DNA of 40,502 bases, taken from contig JAEOTP010000032.1 in NCBI GenBank assembly GCA_016839765.1, positions 1 through 40,502 of the forward strand. The letters run 5' to 3'. Source of the stretch: Promethearchaeota archaeon. GTDB taxonomy: Archaea; Asgardarchaeota; Lokiarchaeia; Sigyniarchaeales; SOKP01. A program made the position numbers and the translations under genes. Shown one piece after another: positions 245-32,435 of this stretch (positions are counted from its first letter, which is position 1; every line of letters starts with the position of its first letter). The notes under the pieces are model-generated. The model saw only the letters and a list, made by a program, of their open reading frames with translations. It was not told the DNA's origin and ran no database searches.

Positions 245-1810
245 TTACTTTATAGCCCTGGTATTTACAATAGCATTTAGCATTACTTTAAGATTTTCAA
301 ACATCTGTTCTCTAAAGTCAAGACCGATTTTAAGAAATAGAATGGAAACTAACTTTTCCTCTAAATCTTCTTCGATATGGAATTGTTCCATTAGCCGAGA
401 TAAATTAATGTCATCGTTAACTCTTAATCCAACGATTATAACTCTCTTTTTTCTTATTTTTTTAATTATATCAATTAAAATGTCTTTCCATTTAGGATCA
501 ATATCTTTTTTATCCCGTGCATCAAAAATTACAAACGCACCATCTGTATTTGCAAGATTATAATTATCATAAGGAAAATTATTAATAATTAAACCATTTT
601 TATATGCATATAACTGTTCTTGAGCACTGTCTTTAATTTTTGAATATTCACCAAGTTTTTCTAACTCGGTTATAGTATGGAAACCAGGACTCCAATTCAA
701 GTTTTCAGTAATAAAGGATAATTCTAAAATAATAAGCTTTTTCAAGGTGGAAATTATGAGATCTGCTAATTCATCTTTAATCATATCTTTTTCTTTTTGC
801 TTTATTCTTAAAATATAATGATAAGCAATCAATTTAAAAGCATCTGAAACGTTGGTACCATCTAGAGCGCTCGTTTCTGTGTAAGATAATCCCTTTTCTG
901 AAAGAGCATTTGCCAAATCTTCTCCCTGTTGAAATGAAACTACTCTATGATCCTCTAAATCTGTTTTATTACCAGCGATCACCATAGGAATCTCTTCTTC
1001 TTTAATATATTCTGTTATTTCATCATACCAATTTTTAACATTATCATACGATTCGCGATTTGTGATATCATAAACAATAAAAGCTGCCTCAGCTCCAGAA
1101 TAATACAGCTTTCTGAACCTTTTAAAGTATTGCTGAGCTCCTATGTCCCATAATGTTAAATTAATTTCATTTCCTTGAAAAGTAAACGTATGGGCTAAAA
1201 TATTTAAACCGATAGTAGGTCTATAATCAAAAGCGAATTTTCGTTCTACAAATCTACGAATAATAGAGGTCTTACCAACTTCATGATCCCCAACAATAAC
1301 AAATTTAAATGAATATGCTCCTCTTTCTTCAAGATCACTAACTTGAAATATCTGTTGTTTTAGTTTTTCATGTCTGTCCACTTCCTCCTCAAAATTTGGG
1401 ATGGTTAATTGAAGTAAATCATCTTCCTGAGCGTGTAGGATCTGTGCTGACTTTTCGGCGAGGAAATAAGCATAAGGTGATATTTCGTCAATAGAGGCCA
1501 TGCTTGTCAAAACTAGGCTTAAAATTCTTTCTTGATCAATTGAAACAAATAATAATCTATATTCGTCAGTATCAAAACTAGCGGTACCAAATTTCTGAAA
1601 AGCAAATTCATTTCTTATTCTTTCAAGTACAGGATTAATTAAAGTAGTCAAGACGGAAACAATTTCAAGGTCACTGCTAATATCTTTTCTTTTTTCTCCA
1701 GCGATAATTAAACCTTCAACGTCAGATATAATAACTGCTTCCAGTTGCTGGAATCTATCTAAAAAACTACTTAATAACTCACGAAAAAGTTTATTCCTTT
1801 TAATTACCAA
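245..1810 (-). CDS. Roadblock/LC7-like domain + Rab-like small GTPase + C-terminal degenerate GTPase-like domain
   Basis: N-terminal 'LEAVIISDVEGLIIA' roadblock pattern. G1 GDHEVGKTS, G2 PTIG, G3 WDIGAQ, G4 NKTD, G5 ETSAL. The C-terminal ~160 aa echo the G-domain strand order. Confidence 0.85.
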   Translation of the reverse strand: MVIKRNKLFRELLSSFLDRFQQLEAVIISDVEGLIIAGEKRKDISSDLEIVSVLTTLINPVLERIRNEFAFQKFGTASFDTDEYRLLFVSIDQERILSLVLTSMASIDEISPYAYFLAEKSAQILHAQEDDLLQLTIPNFEEEVDRHEKLKQQIFQVSDLEERGAYSFKFVIVGDHEVGKTSIIRRFVERKFAFDYRPTIGLNILAHTFTFQGNEINLTLWDIGAQQYFKRFRKLYYSGAEAAFIVYDITNRESYDNVKNWYDEITEYIKEEEIPMVIAGNKTDLEDHRVVSFQQGEDLANALSEKGLSYTETSALDGTNVSDAFKLIAYHYILRIKQKEKDMIKDELADLIISTLKKLIILELSFITENLNWSPGFHTITELEKLGEYSKIKDSAQEQLYAYKNGLIINNFPYDNYNLANTDGAFVIFDARDKKDIDPKWKDILIDIIKKIRKKRVIIVGLRVNDDINLSRLMEQFHIEEDLEEKLVSILFLKIGLDFREQMFENLKVMLNAIVNTRAIK

Positions 1811-1948
1811 TTAAAGCGCCCCTTTTTTTTGATTTAGATCAATTTTAATCTTAAATTATACTTACAAATAATATAGCAACCCATATTTTTAAAAATGGTT
1901 ATTTATTAATCATTACTATCTACAGAAAAAGAAGGATATAAAATAGTT

Positions 1949-3517
1949 CTAACTTAAATCTTTGATTGTATTTAACATTACTTCCAGCTGATCATAGATT
2001 TCAAGGCGATATTCAATACCAATTTTAAAAAATAACAAAGAAATCATTTTATTCTCTATATATTTATTTATATTAAATTCTTCCAATATTTGAGACCAAT
2101 CACTTGCTTCAGATACTCTAATTCCTATTAGGGCTACTTTATTCTCAGTAATGTTATTTATAATATTTATCACAGTTTCTTTCCATTTTGGTTCAATATG
2201 CTCCTTTTCTCGGGCATCAAAAATTATAAATACTCCATCTGAATCAGAAATATCAATATTATCAAAGAGAAAATTCTTTATAACTAAACCATTTGAATAT
2301 TCATATACTCTCCTATCTTTATCATCTTTTACTTTCTCACAATCACATAGTTTATTAATTTCTGTTAAAATTTGTAATCCTGGACTCCAAAGAGGATTTT
2401 CAGTGATAAAAGAAATTACAAGTTTTTCATTTTTATCTAATATTGAATTTAATATATTCATCAAATCTAGCTTTAAACGTTGTTCCTCTATTTCTATACT
2501 TCTCATAATATAATGGTAAGCTATTAAATTAAAAGCATCTTCTATACTTTCTCCAGTTAACGCACTTGTTTCAATAAATGAAATTCCTCCCTCATATTGA
2601 CCACTTGCTAATTCACTTGTTAATTTTACACCATCTTCATAGCTTATTACTCTCTGGTTAGTTAAATCAATTTTATTTCCAATAATGACAATCGGTAATT
2701 GTTTATTCTCTAAGATTTTTCTTAATTCATAATACCAATCTTTTACATGGATGTAGGATTCTTGGTTTGTTACATCAAACACAATAAATCCTGCTTGGGC
2801 ACCAGAATAATAAGTTTTGCGGAATCTTTTAAAAAATTCTTGGGCACCCAGATCCCAAAAATTAAATGTAACTTGATTACCATAAGATTTAATACTATGA
2901 CTCATTATATTTAATCCTAGAGTAGGACGATAATCAAATGAAAATTTCTTTTCTACAAATTGTCGAATTATCGATGTTTTACCTACTTCATGATCACCGA
3001 TAAATATACATTTAAATTTATACTTACCACCTGAATCTAGTCTCATTTGATATATTTGTTCTTTTATCCTACCAGAATTTTCAGAGAGACTTACCTCAAC
3101 TTCAAAATTCGGTATTGTTAATTGAATGAGGTCTCCCTCTTTTGCATTTAATATTTGGGCAGTCTTCTCCGCTAGAAAATAACCATAGGGACTAACTTTA
3201 TCAATTGAACCTAGAGTATTTAGAACTATACTTAAAGTTGTAGTCTCATCAATGGAGATAAACAGCAATCGATAATTCTCAGTATCAAAGCTTGCAGTTC
3301 CAAATTTCTTAAAGGCGAATTCGTCCCTCATACGTTCTAAAATAGGTTGGATTAATCCAGTTAGAACCGACACTAATTCCAGATCTACACTAACTTTCTT
3401 CTCTCCCGCGATTACAAACCCTTCATGATCAGAAACAATCACTGCTTCGAGATCATCATCAATTTCCAAGAATTTGGTATATAATTCTTTGAAGAGTGGA
3501 TCAATATTTATTGCCAT
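1949..3517 (-). CDS. Paralogous roadblock + Rab-like GTPase + degenerate GTPase-like domain protein
   Basis: Colinear with 245..1810 over its full length: LEAVIVSDHEG, GDHEVGKTS, PTLG, WDLGAQ, NKID, ETSAL, DGVFIIFDARE. Confidence 0.85.
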   Translation of the reverse strand: MAINIDPLFKELYTKFLEIDDDLEAVIVSDHEGFVIAGEKKVSVDLELVSVLTGLIQPILERMRDEFAFKKFGTASFDTENYRLLFISIDETTTLSIVLNTLGSIDKVSPYGYFLAEKTAQILNAKEGDLIQLTIPNFEVEVSLSENSGRIKEQIYQMRLDSGGKYKFKCIFIGDHEVGKTSIIRQFVEKKFSFDYRPTLGLNIMSHSIKSYGNQVTFNFWDLGAQEFFKRFRKTYYSGAQAGFIVFDVTNQESYIHVKDWYYELRKILENKQLPIVIIGNKIDLTNQRVISYEDGVKLTSELASGQYEGGISFIETSALTGESIEDAFNLIAYHYIMRSIEIEEQRLKLDLMNILNSILDKNEKLVISFITENPLWSPGLQILTEINKLCDCEKVKDDKDRRVYEYSNGLVIKNFLFDNIDISDSDGVFIIFDAREKEHIEPKWKETVINIINNITENKVALIGIRVSEASDWSQILEEFNINKYIENKMISLLFFKIGIEYRLEIYDQLEVMLNTIKDLS

Positions 3518-3642
3518 CGTAAATCCTCAAGAGTAATGAATATTATTATCATATTAGAATGTAATATAAACATGGATAATGTTAAACAACATAAACTTAA
3601 AAATAGTAATTTTATATTTTATTAAAGCGTTTTCGGATTCTA

Positions 3643-4215
3643 ATGGTTAATTGTATTATCTGTCATTTGGGAATGAATGAAGTTGAGAGTTTTCAAGAAT
3701 GCCCAAATGGTCATCCGACTCATAGTGATTGTTTACGAGAATGGTTACTCCACTCTTCAAACTGCCCATTGTGTAATGAGCCATACCCTCAAATTATTAT
3801 CGACAAATTCAAAACTTATATTAACAAGAAGGAATTGGAAGATCAAAAAGCATTTGAAGAGGAACGCAAAAAAGAAACGGTAGAAAAAATAGAAAAGGTT
3901 ACTGATCAAATTGCATTTATGAAATTTACTGAATCTATTGACATTTTGATTGAACAAAAAGAATATGATTATGCATTCTCTAGATTAGAAATGCATAATG
4001 AACAAAATATATCGACCGAGAAAGGCAGGATGATTACTTTTCTTAAAGGTAAATTAAATTATTTAAAAGGCAGATATGATTTAGCAATCAACTTTTTGTT
4101 TAAATTAGTCAAGGAAAAATTTGATTATCCTGAAGGATTTCTTTATCTTGGTAAAGCATATGAGGCGCTTGGATTAGCTGATAAAGCACAATGGGCTTAT
4201 GAAAGAGTTAAATAA
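3643..4215 (+). CDS. RING-H2 finger + coiled coil + TPR protein (putative E3 ligase)
   Basis: C-x2-C-x12-C-x3-H-x2-H-x2-C-x3-W-x6-C-P-x-C, followed by TPR helices (FLKGKLNYLKGRYDLA; LYLGKAYEALGLADKA). Confidence 0.8.
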   Translation: MVNCIICHLGMNEVESFQECPNGHPTHSDCLREWLLHSSNCPLCNEPYPQIIIDKFKTYINKKELEDQKAFEEERKKETVEKIEKVTDQIAFMKFTESIDILIEQKEYDYAFSRLEMHNEQNISTEKGRMITFLKGKLNYLKGRYDLAINFLFKLVKEKFDYPEGFLYLGKAYEALGLADKAQWAYERVK

Positions 4216-10161: not shown

Positions 10162-13100
10162 ATGTATAGATTGAAAAAGAAGTTTAAAAGCATCTTTTTA
10201 CTAATATTCCTTACTTTAATATTATTGCTTTCATTTAATGCTCCTTCTAGCCTTTATAAATCTTCTAAAATGGATTTAAATTCTACTGATCAAGATTTAG
10301 TAAATTATAAGAATTCAGACCATACTTTTATCTATACTCTAAACGGTAATCAATATTTAGCAGAGTATATAACAAAAGATAAAATTGAGGAGATGAAAAA
10401 AGATGGAGTGTTTGAGGAAGCAAGAAGAAATTACAATGATATTATCGATGGTCATGGTACAGGATATTCTAAACCAACGGCAGATGATTTGGATTCTCTT
10501 GTTGGAAAAATATCATTATTAGGATTAGTTTCAGATTACAAACGAGGCTATAAAGCTACAGCAGATATTTCAACAGAAATATATTTTCCGGTAGTTGGAG
10601 ATCAAGGTAGGCAGGGTTCTTGTACCTCATGGGCTAATGTATATTATGCTTTTGGATATTTAGAAGCAAAAGATTATGGATGGGATGCAAGTTCGGGAAA
10701 TCCAAACTACTTATTAAGTCCAGCATGGTCATATAATAAAATAGCTGCTTATGATTATGGCTCAATACCTTCGGAAACTGCTGAACTTATAAAACAGTGG
10801 GGTGTAGCAACTTTAAGCACTATGCCTTATAATGATATGGATGTTAATAATTGGGGAAATGAAGCTGCTTGGCGAGAAGCTCCTTATCATAGGCCTCTTG
10901 ATTATAGTCTAATTACCTATGTAGGTAATTCCACCATTGATGTTATCAAAAGTATACTAGACAGTGGAACTCCAGTTACTATCGGAATTGATGCGAATCA
11001 ATTTTCCAATGGATTGAATGATACAGATTATATACTATCTTCAGATGAATATAATGTAGTTGGATTAAATCACGCACAATGTTTTGTGGGATATGATGAT
11101 TCCATTTCAGAAGGAAGTGATATAGGAGCATTTAGAGTGGTCAATTCATGGGGGGCTGGTTGGATGGACGATGGATATTATTGGTTAACCTACGATGCGT
11201 TTCACGAATTCGGAGCTGTTGGTGATCAGCAAATAGTTTTCCTAACCGATCGAATTGACTATAATCCTGATTTAATTGCTACATGGGAATTTAGTCCAGG
11301 ATCAACTAGAATGGGTGATATTTTAACATTAGGAGTTGGTCCACATGATACCCCATTAGATTATATAACTCCGCATTATGATGCTGATGTTAATAACTTA
11401 TTTCCGGAATTTATGGCATTCGATATTACAGACTTTTACACCTATTATAATATAAATAACGATGTATTTTTTTATCTTGAGATTGGTTCAGCTGATATTA
11501 ATGGAATAATATCATCATTTAAACTTGAAAGATATCTAGGGGGAATTCTCCAACAGATTTCCCAAGAATCACCTGATGTCCCAGAAAATACTCCGGGATA
11601 TGTAAATGCTACATTTATGATTTTTAATCACGAACTAAAACTGTGTTTAAAAGCTCCAACAGATCCTAAAATATACAATCCTTATCAGATTGAAGCGTTA
11701 GTAATCAATAATGGTGCTAGTGGTGAAACCAGCGTAGATTTTGATTTACTGCTCAATAATGTTCCAGTTCATTCAATTACTATTCCTAGTCTTTCAAGTG
11801 GAACAAATACAACTATTATTTATCTATGGACACCCACGGAATATGAGGTTTATAATTTCACCGCATATGTGCCTCCGGTGCCTGGAGAAACGTATAGATC
11901 TAACAATTATGCCTCTGAAATATTATATATACTAGGCCCAATTTTTTATGATGATTTTGAAAGTGGCTTATCTCAGTGGGTATCCATAACAGGGCTTTGG
12001 CATTTAACTGACAATAGTAGTGCATGGTTAAATCCATATAATTCACCGATTCATTCTATGTGGTTTGGTAATGAATCTACTGGTAACTATGAAACAGGTT
12101 TTCAAGAATTTGGAAGTATAACATCAACCTCCATTAACTTAATGACTATTGGTGTAGCTTTCTTAGAGTTTTACCATTGGCGAGAAGGAGAAGGACATGG
12201 GTATGATATTTCTTATGTATATATATCTATTGATGGTTTTATTTGGGATCTCATTTATCAAACTGATGAATATCACATTATGCCATGGGAAAAAGTATCT
12301 ATAGATATCTCTGCTTATACTGGAAATCCTTCAGTGCAAATAATGTTTGAGTTTGATACGATTGATAATATTGCAAATGATTATAGAGGTTGGTTAATAG
12401 ATGACATAGTAATTATGGGTACAGGAGTAGTTATACCACATGATTTAAGAGTTTCGCTAGATGTTCCTGAGTTTCCTACAATTTCTAATACTTACTCTAT
12501 TAATGCTACAATTACTAATACTGGAACGAGTGACGAATCGGATGTAGATCTATTCTTCTATTTAGATGGGATTTTGATAGATTCCATTTATATATCAAAT
12601 TTTCCTTCTGGGACCAGCCAAACCATTAATTATCTATGGACTCCCACTGACTATGGAGATTATAGTTTTAAGGCATATGCTCCACCAGTAATAGGGGAGA
12701 CTTATACAATGGATAATCTTAAATTGAAATTAATACCAATTCACGAGATAATACTTTTTGATGGATTAATACTCAACTACTCATTTACTATATCTGGTCA
12801 AACTTATCTTATGCAATGTGGATATTCATCTCTTTCAGAGAAAGATTTTCATGCTGATTACTCAATATATAATGGAAGTATTCTTCTCCTAAAAGGCTAT
12901 TGGGAGGTAAATAGTCAAACAAGAATTATAACTGATTCTTCTATTACAGGGTTTATTCTTCTGGATGTCGGATTACACACACCTTTATGGATCTTTACAG
13001 ATAGTTCAATCGGTGATGAAATTCCCATATCGGTTGCTGGTTCAGACCATATGTTTAACGTATCAGATGAATTAACTTATAATCTCTCTGATTTTGGATT

Positions 13101-13374
13101 AGTAGAGGTATGGGTGTTGGAAGATTTAAGTTTTCCAGGCGGTTTTGCGTGGTATGAGAAAAATTCAGGCCTACTATTAAATGGCACGTTTCTTTATGAG
13201 CTCGGGATGACAACTGTTAACTACTCACTTACTCTTGTTTATTCTAATTACTTTGAAGTTGAAGAAGAAGGAAAAGGTATCCCGGGCTATAACCTACTAT
13301 TTATTATTGCGTCTCTAGGTGTAATAATACTCCTCTCGGCAAAAGTGAAATTTAAAAAAATCAAGAATTTTTAA
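10162..13374 (+). CDS. Surface-anchored C1A (papain-like) cysteine peptidase with two CARDB-like repeats, a beta-sandwich domain and a Loki-CTERM tail
   Basis: Signal/TM N-terminus; DQGRQGSCTSWA (catalytic Cys), NHAQCFVGYDD (His), VNSWGAGW (Asn); repeated YLWTPT.Y..Y.F.AY.PPV.GETY; ends IPGY-TM-KVKFKKIK. Confidence 0.88.
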   Translation: MYRLKKKFKSIFLLIFLTLILLLSFNAPSSLYKSSKMDLNSTDQDLVNYKNSDHTFIYTLNGNQYLAEYITKDKIEEMKKDGVFEEARRNYNDIIDGHGTGYSKPTADDLDSLVGKISLLGLVSDYKRGYKATADISTEIYFPVVGDQGRQGSCTSWANVYYAFGYLEAKDYGWDASSGNPNYLLSPAWSYNKIAAYDYGSIPSETAELIKQWGVATLSTMPYNDMDVNNWGNEAAWREAPYHRPLDYSLITYVGNSTIDVIKSILDSGTPVTIGIDANQFSNGLNDTDYILSSDEYNVVGLNHAQCFVGYDDSISEGSDIGAFRVVNSWGAGWMDDGYYWLTYDAFHEFGAVGDQQIVFLTDRIDYNPDLIATWEFSPGSTRMGDILTLGVGPHDTPLDYITPHYDADVNNLFPEFMAFDITDFYTYYNINNDVFFYLEIGSADINGIISSFKLERYLGGILQQISQESPDVPENTPGYVNATFMIFNHELKLCLKAPTDPKIYNPYQIEALVINNGASGETSVDFDLLLNNVPVHSITIPSLSSGTNTTIIYLWTPTEYEVYNFTAYVPPVPGETYRSNNYASEILYILGPIFYDDFESGLSQWVSITGLWHLTDNSSAWLNPYNSPIHSMWFGNESTGNYETGFQEFGSITSTSINLMTIGVAFLEFYHWREGEGHGYDISYVYISIDGFIWDLIYQTDEYHIMPWEKVSIDISAYTGNPSVQIMFEFDTIDNIANDYRGWLIDDIVIMGTGVVIPHDLRVSLDVPEFPTISNTYSINATITNTGTSDESDVDLFFYLDGILIDSIYISNFPSGTSQTINYLWTPTDYGDYSFKAYAPPVIGETYTMDNLKLKLIPIHEIILFDGLILNYSFTISGQTYLMQCGYSSLSEKDFHADYSIYNGSILLLKGYWEVNSQTRIITDSSITGFILLDVGLHTPLWIFTDSSIGDEIPISVAGSDHMFNVSDELTYNLSDFGLVEVWVLEDLSFPGGFAWYEKNSGLLLNGTFLYELGMTTVNYSLTLVYSNYFEVEEEGKGIPGYNLLFIIASLGVIILLSAKVKFKKIKNF

Positions 13375-13553: not shown

Positions 13554-14051
13554 TTGAATAGAATTTGGCCATGGTATTGGCCTAAAAATGGGATGCCTAA
13601 AAAAACTGAGCCATTTACTTGGATAATTAAGGGAAAAATGGCAGCCAGTTGGTGGCCAGACCTTCCTCTATATGGAATCTATAAGAAAGAAGGGATTTCA
13701 GTAATAGTAAATTGTTCTGAATTTGATAATCACAAAGATGTTCCTAAAAAATTTAAATATTACCATATTAATGTCCCTGATTATGGAATTCCAAGTAATA
13801 AGCAAATTGGCAAATTTCTTCAAATTTGTAAAATACATATTCAAAAACAGGAAGCAATAGTAGTTCATTGTGTAGCCGGATGTGGCCGAACCGCCCAATT
13901 TATTATCGTTTGGGCAGCTAGTACTGGATATATTCCAAATAGTATAGATCCTGTAAAATGGATACGAAAATTAAGACCTTGCAGTTTAGAAACTAAAGAA
14001 CAGATGGCTCAAGCTAGAAAATTAGTTAAAGCATATCAAATAAACCATTAG
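13554..14051 (+). CDS. Dual-specificity / protein-tyrosine phosphatase family protein
   Basis: HCVAGCGRT (CX5R), acid loop VPDY, and C-terminal RP.SLET.EQ. Confidence 0.9.
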   Translation: MNRIWPWYWPKNGMPKKTEPFTWIIKGKMAASWWPDLPLYGIYKKEGISVIVNCSEFDNHKDVPKKFKYYHINVPDYGIPSNKQIGKFLQICKIHIQKQEAIVVHCVAGCGRTAQFIIVWAASTGYIPNSIDPVKWIRKLRPCSLETKEQMAQARKLVKAYQINH

Positions 14052-24035: not shown

Positions 24036-24866
24036 ATGTTTTTAATGTCGATTAATATGATAAAAACAGAACAGAAGATTGTGAGGACAATACTTTACAA
24101 TTTTATAATTTTTTTGTTCTTTTTCTTCTGGTTTTTTTACTCCACATATGATAATGTTATTGGAGTAATCTTAATATGCTTTTCAATCATCATTTTGTTA
24201 CTTTACTCATCTATTTACAATAGTAAAATAAATAACAAGTTTTCCGTAAAATTTTTTCATTTAATCCTTATTTTAATTTCAATATTTTTTATAATAGAAG
24301 TTCTGTTTTTCTATAAAGCATTTTCACCTACAATTTTCATTTTATATAATAATTTAATTGGAATAGAGCATCAACATGATATTCTGTTATTTATTTTCTA
24401 TTTACTATTAACAATCTTAAAAGTATTACCAATTAGATTTTTTTATAATAAGCTAATTAATTTAATTAAAGAACCTCAACTGGATAATTATATTGGATAT
24501 TTTATTGAGGATTTTAATAAAAAAAAGTTGATTCTTTTAATTCTACTAGTTCCTATGGCTGCTTTTGTCGAAGAATTTATTTTTAGAAGTTTATTATTAA
24601 CTGTTATTGTAAATTATCTAAATTGGAACATCTTTATAGCTATTCTCTTCATATCATCAGTATTTGGAATTCTTCATTACTCCTCTTCAAGAAATTGGGC
24701 TCATTTTCTCTCTACGTTATTATCATCAATTATATACTTCTTTGCTCTAATTCAATTGGGGTTACTATATCCTTGGATATTACATTTGACGACAAATAGT
24801 CTTGCATTATTATTTTTTTATCAAAATCATAGAAAAAATACGAAAAAATACGAAAAATTAAGTTAG
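24036..24866 (+). CDS. CPBP (Rce1/Abi-type) intramembrane protease
   Basis: EEFIFR, FGILH and HLTTN motifs in a multi-TM protein. Confidence 0.88.
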   Translation: MFLMSINMIKTEQKIVRTILYNFIIFLFFFFWFFYSTYDNVIGVILICFSIIILLLYSSIYNSKINNKFSVKFFHLILILISIFFIIEVLFFYKAFSPTIFILYNNLIGIEHQHDILLFIFYLLLTILKVLPIRFFYNKLINLIKEPQLDNYIGYFIEDFNKKKLILLILLVPMAAFVEEFIFRSLLLTVIVNYLNWNIFIAILFISSVFGILHYSSSRNWAHFLSTLLSSIIYFFALIQLGLLYPWILHLTTNSLALLFFYQNHRKNTKKYEKLS

Positions 24867-28738: not shown

Positions 28739-28837
28739 TATCTAAAGTATATGAAAAATCCTTTATATCAATAAAATTATTATTATTAAAGAACGTATTT
28801 ATACAAAAACGTGATTTTTTTAGGAACTAAACTCATG
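28718..28837 (+). repeat. Direct repeat copy 1 (longin gene end + upstream region + start of acyltransferase 1)
   Basis: Near-identical to 29952-30071. Confidence 0.9.
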
Positions 28838-29929
28838 AAGAAAAGATTTAAGACTATAGACTTGCTACGTGGATTGCATATTTTTTTGATGATTTTTCTG
28901 CATCTAAGTGATTGGTGGTTAATGTATGAAGCTTATTGGCTAAGAGATATAATTTATTATATTTTTCTACCCATTGGTACTACGGGTTTTTTATTTATCT
29001 CAGGCGTTAGTGCTACCTTATCATATAAAAGTAATCAATTAAAGCTCAAAGATTCAAATGAATTAGATTGGAAAAAAATAAGAACTATATACATTTTCAG
29101 GGCGTTATTAATTCTGATATTTGGTTTATTGTATAATATTTTCATGGCTTTTAGATTCGGTGATATTTTAGATTTATGGAGTTGGAATGTATTACAAACT
29201 ATTGCATTCTCTCTCATTTTGGTATGGCCACTTCTGAAAACCTCGAAAATTTTTAGAATTTTTGTTGGGTTTATATTATTACTAATTAATGAATTACTCT
29301 TAGCATTTCTAAGAAATTTTGAAGGAAATTTCAATTTATATGGGATTTTATTTCACTTTTTATACAATCCTTTAACTGAATTTACGATCATTTCATTCTT
29401 TACTTTTTTTTTATTTGGCACTGTTGTCGGAGAGCTTGTTTTTGATATTATTCAGCTTAATAACGAGAAGGAAAGGAGAATTGCGGTTAAGAAGATTTTT
29501 TTAAGAAATACGTTAATTCCTGGGAGTATATTAGTAACACTTGGAGTATTATATCAGTTTCCGTCATTTTTTTTACATAATACATTTTCATCATTTATTT
29601 ATGCAATTGGAATTATTTTGGTTGCGTTTTCTTTGTTTATTTCAATAGAAGAATTCCAAATTATTAGAACGAAAAAGAATTATAATATTATGTTTTTTTA
29701 TTCATATTACTCATTTACCATCTATGTAGGGCATTTTTTATTATATTTTCTATTTTTGGGTCAATTAAATGCAGTAAATTTTTGGATCTTGGTTATTATA
29801 ACAATGAGCATTTTAACAGTTTTACTCAGAACCATGTATATAAAATTAGGCCCAAAAGTTTCTTTAAAAATTGCAATAAGCGCAGCAAGTTTCATTTTAG
29901 CAACTAAATTCAGGAAAAACAAAAATTAA
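28835..29929 (+). CDS. HGSNAT-catalytic / DUF1624-like membrane acyltransferase, copy 1
   Basis: RFKTIDLLRG...MIFLH, FLFISGVS, WNVLQTI. Start moved from 28811 to ATG 28835 by alignment with copy 2. Confidence 0.8.
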   Translation: MKKRFKTIDLLRGLHIFLMIFLHLSDWWLMYEAYWLRDIIYYIFLPIGTTGFLFISGVSATLSYKSNQLKLKDSNELDWKKIRTIYIFRALLILIFGLLYNIFMAFRFGDILDLWSWNVLQTIAFSLILVWPLLKTSKIFRIFVGFILLLINELLLAFLRNFEGNFNLYGILFHFLYNPLTEFTIISFFTFFLFGTVVGELVFDIIQLNNEKERRIAVKKIFLRNTLIPGSILVTLGVLYQFPSFFLHNTFSSFIYAIGIILVAFSLFISIEEFQIIRTKKNYNIMFFYSYYSFTIYVGHFLLYFLFLGQLNAVNFWILVIITMSILTVLLRTMYIKLGPKVSLKIAISAASFILATKFRKNKN

Positions 29930-29951
29930 GTTAAATTTTGATGTATTTTTT

Positions 29952-30071
29952 GAATTATTACTATTATTATAGTATCTAAAGGATATGAAAAATCCTTTAT
30001 ATCAATAAATTATTATTATTAAAGAACGTATTTTTAGACAAAAACGTGGTTTTTTAGGAACTAAACTCATG
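29952..30071 (+). repeat. Direct repeat copy 2
   Basis: Begins GAATTATTACTATTATTATAG (ELLLLL*, a relic of the longin C-terminus ELFLLL*), followed by the same upstream sequence. Confidence 0.9.
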
Positions 30072-31166
30072 AAGAAAAGATTCAAGAGTATAGACTTACT
30101 ACGTGGATTGCATATTTTTTTGATGGTTTTTCTTCATCTATGTGATTGGTGGTTAGTTTTTGAAGCTTATTGGTTTAAAGATTTAATACATATTATTTTT
30201 GAACCCATTGGTGCTACAGGTTTTTTATTTATTTCGGGTGTTAGTGCTGCTTTATCGTATAAAAGCAATCTGTTAAAGCTCAAAGATTCAAGTGAATTAA
30301 ATCGGAAAACTATAAAAAATATTTACTTTTTAAGAGCGGTAATACTTCTAATGATTGCTTTATTGTATAATGTTTTATTGGCTTTTAGATTCGGCGACAT
30401 ATCAGATATCTGGAGTTGGAATGTTTTGCAAACCATTGCAATCTCTCTCATTTTGGTGTGGCCATTTTTAAAAACCTCGAAACTAGTAAGGATTTTTATT
30501 GGAATAATATTATTACTGATTAATGAATTACTCTTAGCATTTTTAAGGAATTTTGAAGGAGTTTTTAATTTATATGGGATTTTATTTCATATTTTATACA
30601 ATCCTCTAAATCAATTTACAATCATTTCATTCTTTACTATGTTTTTATTTGGCACTGTTATTGGAGATTTCGTTTTCGACATCACTCTTCTCGATGATGA
30701 GAAGGAAAGGAAAATTATGGTTAGGAATAATTTTTTAATTGGAATATTAATACTCGGGGGCATATTAGTACCAATTGGAGTATTATTTCAGTTTCCTACT
30801 TTTATTTCACGTAATACATTTCCCTCATTTATTTATTCGATTGGAGTAATTTTGGTTATATTTTCTTTGTTAATTTCAATAGAAGAATTTCAACTTATTA
30901 GAACCAAAAAAAATTATAATATTATGTTATTTTTCTCATACTACTCATTTACCATCTATTTAGGACATAATTTATTATATTTTCTGTTTTTGGATCGATT
31001 AAACACAGTGAGTTTTTGGATTCCCATAATTATAACAATGAGCAGTTTAACAATTTTACTCAGAACCATGTTTATAAAAGTAGGACCCAAACTTTCTTTG
31101 AAAACTGGAATAAATGTATTAAGTTTTATAATTGCAACTAAAATTAATAGAAATAAAAAGTATTAG
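30069..31166 (+). CDS. HGSNAT-catalytic / DUF1624-like membrane acyltransferase, copy 2
   Basis: RFKSIDLLRG...MVFLH, FLFISGVS, WNVLQTI; closely similar to copy 1. Confidence 0.8.
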   Translation: MKKRFKSIDLLRGLHIFLMVFLHLCDWWLVFEAYWFKDLIHIIFEPIGATGFLFISGVSAALSYKSNLLKLKDSSELNRKTIKNIYFLRAVILLMIALLYNVLLAFRFGDISDIWSWNVLQTIAISLILVWPFLKTSKLVRIFIGIILLLINELLLAFLRNFEGVFNLYGILFHILYNPLNQFTIISFFTMFLFGTVIGDFVFDITLLDDEKERKIMVRNNFLIGILILGGILVPIGVLFQFPTFISRNTFPSFIYSIGVILVIFSLLISIEEFQLIRTKKNYNIMLFFSYYSFTIYLGHNLLYFLFLDRLNTVSFWIPIIITMSSLTILLRTMFIKVGPKLSLKTGINVLSFIIATKINRNKKY

Positions 31167-31198
31167 TTGTTTCAGTTTTGTCAATTTTCATAATATCT

Positions 31199-31232
31199 TT
31201 TACAAAAATGTAGCTTTTTACAAAATTGTAAA
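31199..31232. promoter_or_regulatory. Tandem palindromic boxes upstream of acyltransferase 3
   Basis: TTTACAA-AA-ATGTAGC and TTTACAA-AA-TTGTAAA, 18 bp apart. Confidence 0.4.
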
Positions 31233-31328
31233 TTAGAAAAGAGTTTTTCTTAAAACTTTAAAAAGCTGGATACTATTTCTTATTAAAGCTTAATAAAATT
31301 TCAGAATTTCAACTAATAATTCTGATGG

Positions 31329-32435
31329 TTGATGATTATAATGGAAAGAATTAAGGGTCTTGATACTATTCGGGGATTTTGCATGTGGATTATGATATAT
31401 GGACACATGATTGATTGGTGGCTAATACAAAGCGATGACTGGTTTCGTCAGTGGTTATTTGGTTTTTTAGAATCAGTTGGGGCTACAGGATTTTTATTCA
31501 TTTCAGGAGCAAGTGCTGCTTTAGCTTTTAGAAGCAATGAATTAAAACTTCAAGCTTTAAACGATTTTAATAAGCTCACAGTAAGAGATGTATACTTTTT
31601 AAGAGCCATTATTATATTATTAATCGGATTTATCTATAACTTTTTTGTGGCTGTCTTATGGAGGGGTGATATTACAGATCTTTGGAGTTGGCTTGTTTTA
31701 CAAACAATAGGTTTTTCGCTAATATTAACTTGGCCTTTTATGAGAACTAGTAGGACTTTCAGAATATTTACTGGAATTTTAATCTTTGTATTAAATTATT
31801 TTCTTTTAGGAATTTTATTACCTTATCAAGAGCAACCCAATTTTGGGGGAAGTTTATTTCATTTACTTTATAATCCCTTAACTCAATATCCCATTTTAAT
31901 GTATTTTAGTGTTTTTCTTATAGGAACTGCAGTAGGAGATAAAATTTCTGAGATAAACATTATAGAAGACCAAAATGAAAGGAAAATAATTTTTAAGAAT
32001 AAATTCATAATTCCTACTTCAATTATCGGAACAATAGTATTACTTTTTGGAATTATAAATTTCTTTCCAGATTTTTTGTTTTTTAATACAATTTCAGCAT
32101 TTGCTTATTCTTTAGGAATTATTCTAATTGCCTTATCGTTTTTTACGGCAATTCAGATATTTGAGCTCATTAAAACAAAAAAAAGTTATAGGTATCTATA
32201 CTTTTATTCATATTATTCATTTACAGTATACTTAGGGCATAATATTTTATATATTCTTTTTGTAGATCAATTAAATGTTATTACCATATGGATTCCTATA
32301 ATAGGAGGAAGTATACTATTTGGATTTCTATTTAGAGCAATGTATCTGAAATTGGGTGCAAAAGCTTCTATAAAGACGGGTATTAGCGCAATGAGCTTTA
32401 TTTTGGCAACCAAATTAAGAAAGAATAAAAAGTAA
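31329..32435 (+). CDS. HGSNAT-catalytic / DUF1624-like membrane acyltransferase, copy 3 (more diverged)
   Basis: RIKGLDTIRG...MIYGH, FLFISGAS, WLVLQTIG. The likely start is the MERIK ATG. Confidence 0.8.
   Translation: MMIIMERIKGLDTIRGFCMWIMIYGHMIDWWLIQSDDWFRQWLFGFLESVGATGFLFISGASAALAFRSNELKLQALNDFNKLTVRDVYFLRAIIILLIGFIYNFFVAVLWRGDITDLWSWLVLQTIGFSLILTWPFMRTSRTFRIFTGILIFVLNYFLLGILLPYQEQPNFGGSLFHLLYNPLTQYPILMYFSVFLIGTAVGDKISEINIIEDQNERKIIFKNKFIIPTSIIGTIVLLFGIINFFPDFLFFNTISAFAYSLGIILIALSFFTAIQIFELIKTKKSYRYLYFYSYYSFTVYLGHNILYILFVDQLNVITIWIPIIGGSILFGFLFRAMYLKLGAKASIKTGISAMSFILATKLRKNKK

Follow-up and report, generated by a model that had tools for sequence, protein, structure and literature searches.

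The 40,502-nucleotide stretch of DNA analysed here (the window) comes from a Promethearchaeota archaeon of the Lokiarchaeia (GenBank contig JAEOTP010000032.1) and carries near its start two consecutive minus-strand genes, each combining a roadblock domain, a Rab-like GTPase domain and a pseudoGTPase domain in one chain. Gene A (1949..3517; protein P0002) starts with ATG and specifies 522 amino acids (aa); gene B (245..1810; P0001) starts with TTG and specifies 521 aa of the same design. In gene A, which is the copy adjoining a RING-finger gene, the roadblock/LC7 domain spans aa 1–123 (3149..3517), a linker aa 124–163 (3029..3148) and the Rab-like G domain aa 164–340 (2498..3028), while a connecting helix (aa 341–364) and the pseudoGTPase domain (aa 365–522) together occupy 1952..2497, all on the minus strand. 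The corresponding domains of gene B lie at approximately aa 1–125 (1436–1810), aa 164–336 (803–1321) and aa 361–521 (248–730). The G+C content across the region of the two genes is about 29%. In the 138-nt spacer between them (1811..1948, minus strand), a T-run past the gene A stop and an AT-rich, TATA-like palindrome ahead of gene B might represent a terminator and a promoter. An earlier note on this DNA had described two colinear genes of 521 and 522 aa, each with a roadblock-like, a Rab-like and a pseudoGTPase domain. Both open reading frames exist exactly as it stated, and the three domains could each be confirmed, the third as a G-fold domain that has lost its nucleotide motifs.

The two proteins align from end to end with 52% identity, 76% positives and 10 gaps, the identity being highest in the roadblock domain (63%), followed by the Rab-like (55%) and C-terminal (44%) domains. 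The block LER.R.EFAF.KFGTASFDT..YRLLF.SID, which the earlier note had singled out as conserved, is found at aa 59–91 of both proteins, inside the most conserved domain. The ratio of non-synonymous to synonymous substitution rates (dN/dS) is 0.02–0.25 for each domain of both paralogues, and 0.04–0.20 across all the domains of gene B; judged by these rates, all three domains are under purifying selection.

In a Pfam scan of both proteins only Ras, Roc and Arf were matched, all of them at aa 169–333, and neither the N-terminal 160 nor the C-terminal 190 residues of either protein gave any family even at an expectation value (E) of 10. Since Pfam is blind to the isolated N- and C-terminal parts, profile and fold methods were needed to assign them. 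An AlphaFold 2 (AF2) model of the full gene A protein, built on 38 homologues, had a predicted local distance difference test (pLDDT) score of 75.7 and a predicted template-modelling (pTM) score of 0.54. It consists of a folded part at aa 1–123, a linker at aa 124–163, a G domain at aa 165–340, a helix at aa 325–363 and then an alpha/beta domain. Foldseek and VIA runs on the whole 522-residue model returned Rab and Ras matches only and were uninformative on the outer domains. As had been anticipated, no transmembrane segment is apparent (the highest Kyte–Doolittle mean over 19 residues, located in the roadblock helix, is 1.58) and a cysteine suitable for lipidation is lacking: the last 120 residues of both proteins are free of cysteine, P0001 is so throughout, and neither has the prenylatable C-terminal cysteine of eukaryotic Rabs. 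Elsewhere in the window, a plus-strand gene (24036–24866) encodes a homologue of Rce1-like type II CAAX prenyl endopeptidases (E 7.6e-12); the GTPases described here are without CaaX tails.

By these profile methods, the N-terminal domain is a divergent Roadblock/LC7 member, detectable by profile–profile comparison only. Its alignment matched that of 12 PF03259 proteins of the same genome in hhalign with 96.6% probability (E 6.5e-10, 87 columns), a result that, at the level of sequence profiles, establishes its homology with the roadblock proteins that this genome encodes in free-standing form. Likewise, a profile of 35 N-domain sequences searched against the PDB sequences (E up to 10) gave three matches, all of them Roadblock/LC7 proteins, with 7yh1_D as the best (E 1.2e-4). 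Pfam's own Robl_LC7 model did not match aa 1–160 of either protein at E up to 10. The secondary structure predicted by AF2 (helices at aa 5–17, 47–66 and 105–123; strands at aa 23–30, 35–40, 74–78, 83–88 and 93–99) follows the order alpha-beta-beta-alpha-beta-beta-beta-alpha, an exact match to the roadblock topology. The topology so predicted coincides with the one seen in the Asgard roadblock homodimers whose structures Tran et al. determined (2024; PMC10933270), namely a sheet of five strands with a single central helix and two terminal helices. In solved roadblock proteins the central helix and the next strand mediate dimerisation (PMC10933270). The presumed dimer elements of the present family (aa 57–86) form the most conserved stretch of the N-domain, and the helix and strand matching those of the solved roadblock proteins are nearly identical in A and B.

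The linker of the gene A protein, although modelled with a pLDDT below 50 at aa 139–163, contains the invariant residues P136, F138, Q154 and Q157. It leads to the Rab-like G domain. The Pfam Ras family was matched at E 1.7e-40 by gene A and 2.3e-48 by gene B (139–164 bits), and the Gtr1_RagA model reached 23.3 bits (cut-off 22) in P0002 only, beneath the 139-bit Ras match, giving no match in P0001. The best structural matches in Foldseek were Rab8a, Rab6B and the Thorarchaeota Rab Thor-Rab (E about 1e-13; template-modelling (TM) score to target 0.86–0.90), and in VIA structure alignments Rab3C (Z 24.2) and Rab6 (Z 23.4), with MglA far lower than the Rabs (Z 15.8 versus 24). In gene A the signature motifs are G1 GDHEVGKT, switch I Thr199, G3 WDLGAQ, G4 NKID and G5 SAL; GDHEVGKT, Thr199, NK[IT]D and ETSAL are common to both proteins of the window. 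G1, the switch I threonine, the catalytic glutamine, NKxD and SA[KL] are kept in 38 of 38 aligned homologues, with some substitutions within the P-loop. With its motifs retained, the central domain should bind and hydrolyse GTP.

The claim that this G domain is complete and Rab-like holds in so far as every G box is present, but G3 is not fully canonical. In both A and B it reads WD[LI]GAQ, with alanine at the position of Ras Gly60, and so departs from the canonical DxxGQ. GAQ is the majority form in the family, with GGQ, AGQ or GSQ in a few members, and the aspartate and glutamine of G3 are invariant. The genome also encodes three two-domain roadblock–Rab paralogues, which have the canonical AGQ or GGQ; the DxGAQ switch II is specific to the three-domain family. 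The substitutions G60A in Ras and G226A in Galpha-s uncouple GTP binding from conformational change. By analogy, the natural alanine at this position probably alters how GTP binding drives switch II, and DxGAQ may make switching dependent on a partner.

The Rab core of gene A differs in its history from the remainder of the gene. In sliding-window identity and a two-breakpoint fit against three orthologues, a segment at 2505..2941 (minus strand; about aa 193–337) showed 24% nucleotide mismatch to the closest orthologues, versus 5–8% in its flanks. Put differently, the DNA is 92–99% identical over the roadblock, linker, P-loop and pseudoGTPase parts and about 76% identical over aa 193–337, where dS is likewise raised. 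This pattern was absent when the relatives were compared among themselves. Gene B was considered as a gene-conversion donor and rejected, since in the core A and B are no more alike than they are in a relative that lacks the mosaic, and no sampled homologue was closer than 79% to the segment. The gene A Rab core thus seems, from these sequence comparisons, to be a recombinant mosaic in which the core of the G domain was exchanged independently of the flanking domains. Other A alleles (P0004, P0006 and P0008) also have discordant per-domain identities, which suggests module-wise recombination.

The C-terminal domain, modelled alone by AF2 from 46 sequences, gave a pLDDT of 91.5 and a pTM of 0.88. 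All the Foldseek matches listed (to rank 50) were GTPases with a probability of 1.0, led by full-length Arf1-GDP (E 7e-7) and the Asgard HodArfR1-GDP (E 7e-7 to 1e-4, TM about 0.6, 8–16% identity). When the domain was compared with representatives in VIA, HodArfR1 scored Z 14.0 (root-mean-square deviation 3.4, 165 of 178 residues), Sar1, Arf and Arl Z 12–13, Loki Rag-like proteins about 11 and MglA 10.7. CENP-M, Ras and Arf were its language-model neighbours, which we regard as leads only. The nucleotide motifs have been lost: neither GxxxxGK[ST] nor any GK[ST] occurs in the 46 C-domain sequences, the P-loop position of gene A reading ENPLWSPG, and NKxD is missing from 44 of the 46, the G4 position of gene A reading GIRVS. 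Of the stray [NT]KxD motifs in the other two, one is distant from the G4 position and the other lies at residues 123–126, beside the G4-equivalent strand. The FDAR motif had been considered as a G3 box and was discarded, since in both hhalign and the profile matches to the PDB FDAR falls on beta4, with LIGIR occupying the G4 strand. A non-GTPase fold, DENN-like or otherwise, an idea prompted by the LAMTOR-Rab-DENN operon described in the preprint of Liu et al., was set aside as well, no such fold being in the top Foldseek and VIA matches; this is an absence from those lists only.

Alternatively, the C-terminal domain could be a generic flavodoxin- or Rossmann-like module, binding a ligand or a protein, that resembles a G domain by convergence. 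Indeed, XOAT1, TIR and receiver-like folds scored Z 9–11, not far under the GTPases, one beta-alpha unit of the model departs from the canonical G fold, and Pfam sees nothing in this region. The sequence matches nevertheless make such a convergence very unlikely: the C-domain profile searched against the PDB sequences (E up to 10) gave nine matches, all nine of them small GTPases in a single register with Rho6/Rnd1 first (E 9.5e-5), and hhalign aligned the domain with the family's own Rab domain in register over beta4-alpha3-beta5 (E 2.4e-4), placing LIGIR over VGNK. The exclusively GTPase matches in Foldseek argue in the same direction. On sequence grounds, the domain is a diverged Ras-superfamily G fold without P-loop and NKxD, that is, a pseudoGTPase.

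The history of the gene pair was followed across Asgard genomes, as the earlier note had advised, with a maximum-likelihood tree of 51 full-length members and three two-domain outgroups (supports given as ultrafast bootstrap/Shimodaira–Hasegawa-like approximate likelihood ratio test). Clade A comprises genera g1 and g2 (77/93), and so does clade B (88/96), which places the duplication before the split of these two genera; a single clade of A and B was neither demonstrated nor rejected (approximately unbiased test, p-AU 0.185). Genera g5, g6 and g54 and some genomes of g2 and g4 have a single copy, most of these genomes being 97–100% complete. Duplications of their own occurred elsewhere, in tandem in g4 and dispersed in g3, and a third clade is present in g1, g2 and g4. 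The A/B duplication is therefore limited to two genera, with one copy in others, and clades A and B have fixed differences at only 2 of 522 positions. In 11 genomes with adjacent copies, this window included, the A-to-B spacer measures 131–169 nt. In the same-genus genomes G057 and G071, A and B are instead about 3.3–3.4 kb apart, which implies that the pair is not an obligatory operon and that co-transcription is not required. At the G057 locus (L088 4969–11496, G057:C13), the insert holds three opposite-strand open reading frames, namely a radical SAM/SPASM protein, a weak methyltransferase-like match and a small frame; the counterpart contig in G071 is G071:C26.

Within each genus, one copy per genome stands beside the RING gene, and in g1 and g2 this copy is A. 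This marks the RING-adjacent position as the ancestral locus and gene B as the downstream tandem duplicate; an ancestral single gene beside the RING gene would have been duplicated in tandem before the two genera separated. In two g2 genomes, G008 (G008:C59:63858-65408, L028) and G168, a lone clade-B copy lies directly beside the RING gene, which suggests a secondary loss of copy A.

These data bear directly on the proposal of the earlier note that A and B form a Rag-like heterodimeric switch. In a strict form of this idea, the two proteins would pair obligatorily through their N-terminal roadblocks into an asymmetric two-GTPase switch, the states of which would be read jointly as in RagA/RagC or Gtr1/Gtr2. 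The tandem, co-oriented arrangement with its short spacer, retained in two genera, and the purifying selection on both copies would be in keeping with such a pair, and among other GTPases of strain MK-D1 (Ca. Prometheoarchaeum syntrophicum) an operon pair of Rag-like proteins has been predicted to heterodimerise through roadblocks (PMC10933270). However, an obligate partner is hard to reconcile with the single-copy genomes, most of them nearly complete, with catalytic motifs that are identical in A and B, whose fixed differences number only two, or with the separation of the copies in G057 and G071, in G057 by genes of the opposite strand. Independent duplications in g3 and g4 point to frequent paralogy rather than one fixed pair, and the G domain is Rab-like, its Gtr1_RagA score in one copy being marginal beside the Ras score. 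As an obligate pair the Rag-like heterodimer is thus unsupported, and we consider it quite unlikely. The duplication has proved lineage-specific, with single copies elsewhere, as the note had foreseen for the case that it was wrong; as to the absence of heterodimer preference, which it named in the same breath, no such preference is visible in the sequences, and we found no evidence in them of Rag-type asymmetry between A and B. Since the roadblock interface is almost identical in the two, homodimers and mixed dimers would both be expected, and roadblock-mediated dimers of either kind are plausible.

The reading that we prefer, with a probability of roughly 0.6, is that each of the two genes specifies a self-contained small-GTPase switch of three modules and that A and B are paralogues rather than the halves of an obligate asymmetric Rag-like heterodimer. 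In such a switch the roadblock would dimerise via its central helix and the next strand, as do the solved Asgard, MglB and Ragulator roadblock proteins, and the dimer would provide a two-fold platform on which the Rab-like domains, carried on 40-residue linkers, could dock in cis or in trans. Docking would thereby link the platform to the nucleotide state, in the way known from MglB-MglA or from the roadblocks of the Rag proteins. The pseudoGTPase, tied to Rab helix alpha5 by one long continuous helix, might act as a nucleotide-free scaffold or partner-binding module.

A narrower possibility is that the roadblock folds back through the 40-residue linker onto the Rab-like domain of its own chain, serving as a GTPase-activating protein (GAP), a guanine nucleotide exchange factor (GEF) or an autoinhibitor in the manner of a fused MglB-MglA, with or without dimerisation. 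The invariant residues in a linker that is modelled as disordered would fit this idea, as would the recurrence of the fusion unit in the two-domain roadblock–Rab paralogues of the same genome. Roadblock/longin platforms are, moreover, generally known to act as GAPs or GEFs and to bind small GTPases in an orientation that is conserved (see also PMC10933270). MglB, however, works as a dimer on one MglA, so that a single roadblock in cis would amount to half a platform, and the whole-chain model, at a pTM of 0.54, does not allow interdomain contacts to be judged. We regard such regulation in cis as plausible but rather unlikely; it is compatible with, and not exclusive of, the self-contained dimeric switch.

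Several observations weigh against the self-contained switch. A and B have been kept side by side in 11 genomes with all their domains conserved, and a pair that functions together would show the same pattern. The low whole-chain pTM is accompanied by a low pLDDT (51–59) in the central roadblock helix, which may require a partner to become ordered. The DxGAQ motif leaves normal GTP-driven switching in doubt, and the VIA margin of the C-terminal domain over flavodoxin-like folds is modest (Z 14.0 versus 10.6–11.0 for XOAT1 and TIR). Finally, whereas domain identities, motif states, selection and phylogeny were established directly, we infer dimerisation and domain docking, together with the rest of the mechanism.

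The gene divergent from gene A (3643..4215, plus strand) encodes a 190-aa RING-finger protein with a TPR-like tail (Pfam zf-RING_2, E 3e-7), the two genes being arranged head-to-head around a 125-bp spacer (3518–3642). In 25 of 25 family genomes a three-domain GTPase copy lies next to the RING gene, which occurs once per genome, and the adjacency is seen in all six genera sampled. ThiD/ThiN is likewise syntenic at the locus, and the adjacency of the RING gene may thus be plain synteny; we regard it as a conserved neighbour with a putative functional link to the GTPases. In the sister family f2, the RING/TPR part follows a 345-aa low-complexity extension and has an ABC ATPase as its neighbour; the three-domain GTPase was not found in that family. 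The extension itself was checked as a hidden roadblock-GTPase and dismissed, being K/P/S/T-rich and giving a BLAST E of 0.47. It is tempting to imagine that A and B preferentially form a mixed dimer, with two live Rab-like and two dead G folds, in which the sensing of GTP by DxGAQ would depend on the platform and the output would be directed to the ligase-like RING/TPR neighbour. We hold this to be a highly improbable scenario; if true, it would represent a Rag/Ragulator-style module tied to a ubiquitin-like system and independently invented in one Lokiarchaeial family.

The three-domain design has a narrow distribution. Homologues with a length of about 521 aa number more than 1000, nearly all labelled Promethearchaeota or Lokiarchaeota. 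Among 151 Asgard genomes, the full-length protein occurred in the window's own family (f1) only, in 25 of its 25 genomes. The C-domain profile was matched in all 40 f1 genomes sampled, in open frames of about 520–560 aa apart from a few fragments cut by contig ends, and gave no comparable score in 160 genomes of 26 other Asgard families. Two weak matches (E 6e-5 and 4e-4) were obtained there, both in family f5 (G127:C15:29325-29606 and G074:C1:2045646-2045948); they cover profile positions 79–176 in open reading frames of 313–321 aa and could be either true GTPases or remote relatives of the dead domain. Searched against 1.84 billion representative proteins, the same profile retrieved 44 clusters (50% identity) and no true GTPase at E 0.001, the clusters being of the same architecture, fragments thereof or a single 894-aa form extended at its C-terminus by TPR repeats. 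The latter (P0127, metagenomic, with ENA and JGI clusters) has about 350 aa of TPR repeats past the pseudoGTPase and thus reads roadblock–Rab–pseudoGTPase–TPR. Many contigs with this gene carry NCBI labels (Odin-, Hod-, Hermod- and Thorarchaeota, and one 'Nanopelagicaceae bacterium') that conflict with the genome grouping used here, and such labels look unreliable.

Farther along, the plus strand of the window encodes a 1070-aa protein with papain-like Peptidase_C1 and CARDB domains (10162–13374), followed by a 165-aa dual-specificity or tyrosine phosphatase-like gene (13554–14051), and three tandem HGSNAT/Acyl_transf_3 membrane acyltransferase paralogues of 372, 365 and 368 aa (28811–32435).

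Among known systems, the closest are the fusions of an N-terminal roadblock to a small GTPase (RG) in MK-D1, which, like the present host, belongs to the Loki-type Asgard archaea and encodes dozens of paralogous GTPases. In modelling the full set of 74 small GTPases of MK-D1, Tran et al. distinguished G-R, R-G and L-G-R architectures along with '?' domains (PMC10933270). The text of their supplement was machine-read with letter errors and was relied on here solely for its codes of architecture, its motifs being left aside; four proteins are coded 'RG' in it, and a code for RG plus a third domain is absent. The MK-D1 RG fusions, for which roadblock/longin dimerisation has been predicted, share the N-terminal roadblock with the window proteins, and the three two-domain paralogues of the present genome are of the same class. 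Unlike these fusions, the window proteins have after the GTPase a third G-fold domain that lacks nucleotide motifs, and the DxGAQ switch II is a feature of their family; the RG proteins of MK-D1 are placed with the Rag and Arf sequences in a structure-based alignment (PMC10933270), whereas the G domain of the window proteins scores as Rab-like. In the literature searched, no paper contained both 'pseudoGTPase' and 'Asgard', none on the LokiRagO/LokiRagM structures was found, other Asgard surveys named roadblock and GTPase families in general terms only, and no description of the roadblock–Rab–pseudoGTPase combination was found. Given the absence of such a code from the supplement and of such a description from the literature searched, the three-domain design is best classed with the Asgard RG fusions, as a form of them not previously described there.

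The resemblance to the Rag/Gtr proteins (RagA/B-RagC/D, Gtr1-Gtr2) consists in a G domain covalently joined to a roadblock, which in those proteins mediates dimerisation (PDB 3R7W, cited in PMC10933270). Their order, however, is G domain followed by a C-terminal roadblock, and the earlier note was right that it is reversed here, the roadblock being N-terminal in the AF2 model. The window family further differs from them in its Rab-like G domain, in its additional pseudoGTPase and in that nothing indicates two asymmetric subunit classes; of a Rag/Gtr system such classes would be expected wherever it occurs, whereas in this family single-copy genomes occur in several genera and only two positions are fixed-different between clades A and B. 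On present evidence, the family, confined as it is to one archaeal family, is not ancestral to the eukaryotic Rags. In the MglA/MglB system of Myxococcus and Thermus, too, a dimeric roadblock protein serves as the platform for a Ras-like GTPase, on which it exerts GAP or GEF-like activity; there, the partners are two distinct polypeptides that assemble into a 2:1 complex, and MglA bears a sequence signature of its own, whereas the window proteins are fused and have Rabs as their nearest structures. The pseudoGTPase domains of CENP-M and of p190RhoGAP (pG1/pG2) retain the G fold without P-loop and base-recognition motifs and serve as scaffolds. The C-terminal domain of the window proteins resembles them in its fold and in the loss of the same motifs; no sequence relation to either could be detected, and, unlike them, it sits in tandem after a live Rab-like domain, behind a roadblock.

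Asgard archaea possess large and poorly understood expansions of small GTPases and of roadblock/longin regulators, the same parts that serve membrane identity and nutrient signalling in eukaryotes. The weight of the present family for eukaryogenesis is limited, because it is confined to one family of the Lokiarchaeia and the paired state is younger still. The family unites, in one conserved chain, a domain of regulator type with a live Rab-like switch and a dead GTPase. It thus offers a compact, expressible system for the control of a fused GTPase by a roadblock, for the effect of a natural alanine at the position of Ras Gly60 and for the contribution of a pseudoGTPase.

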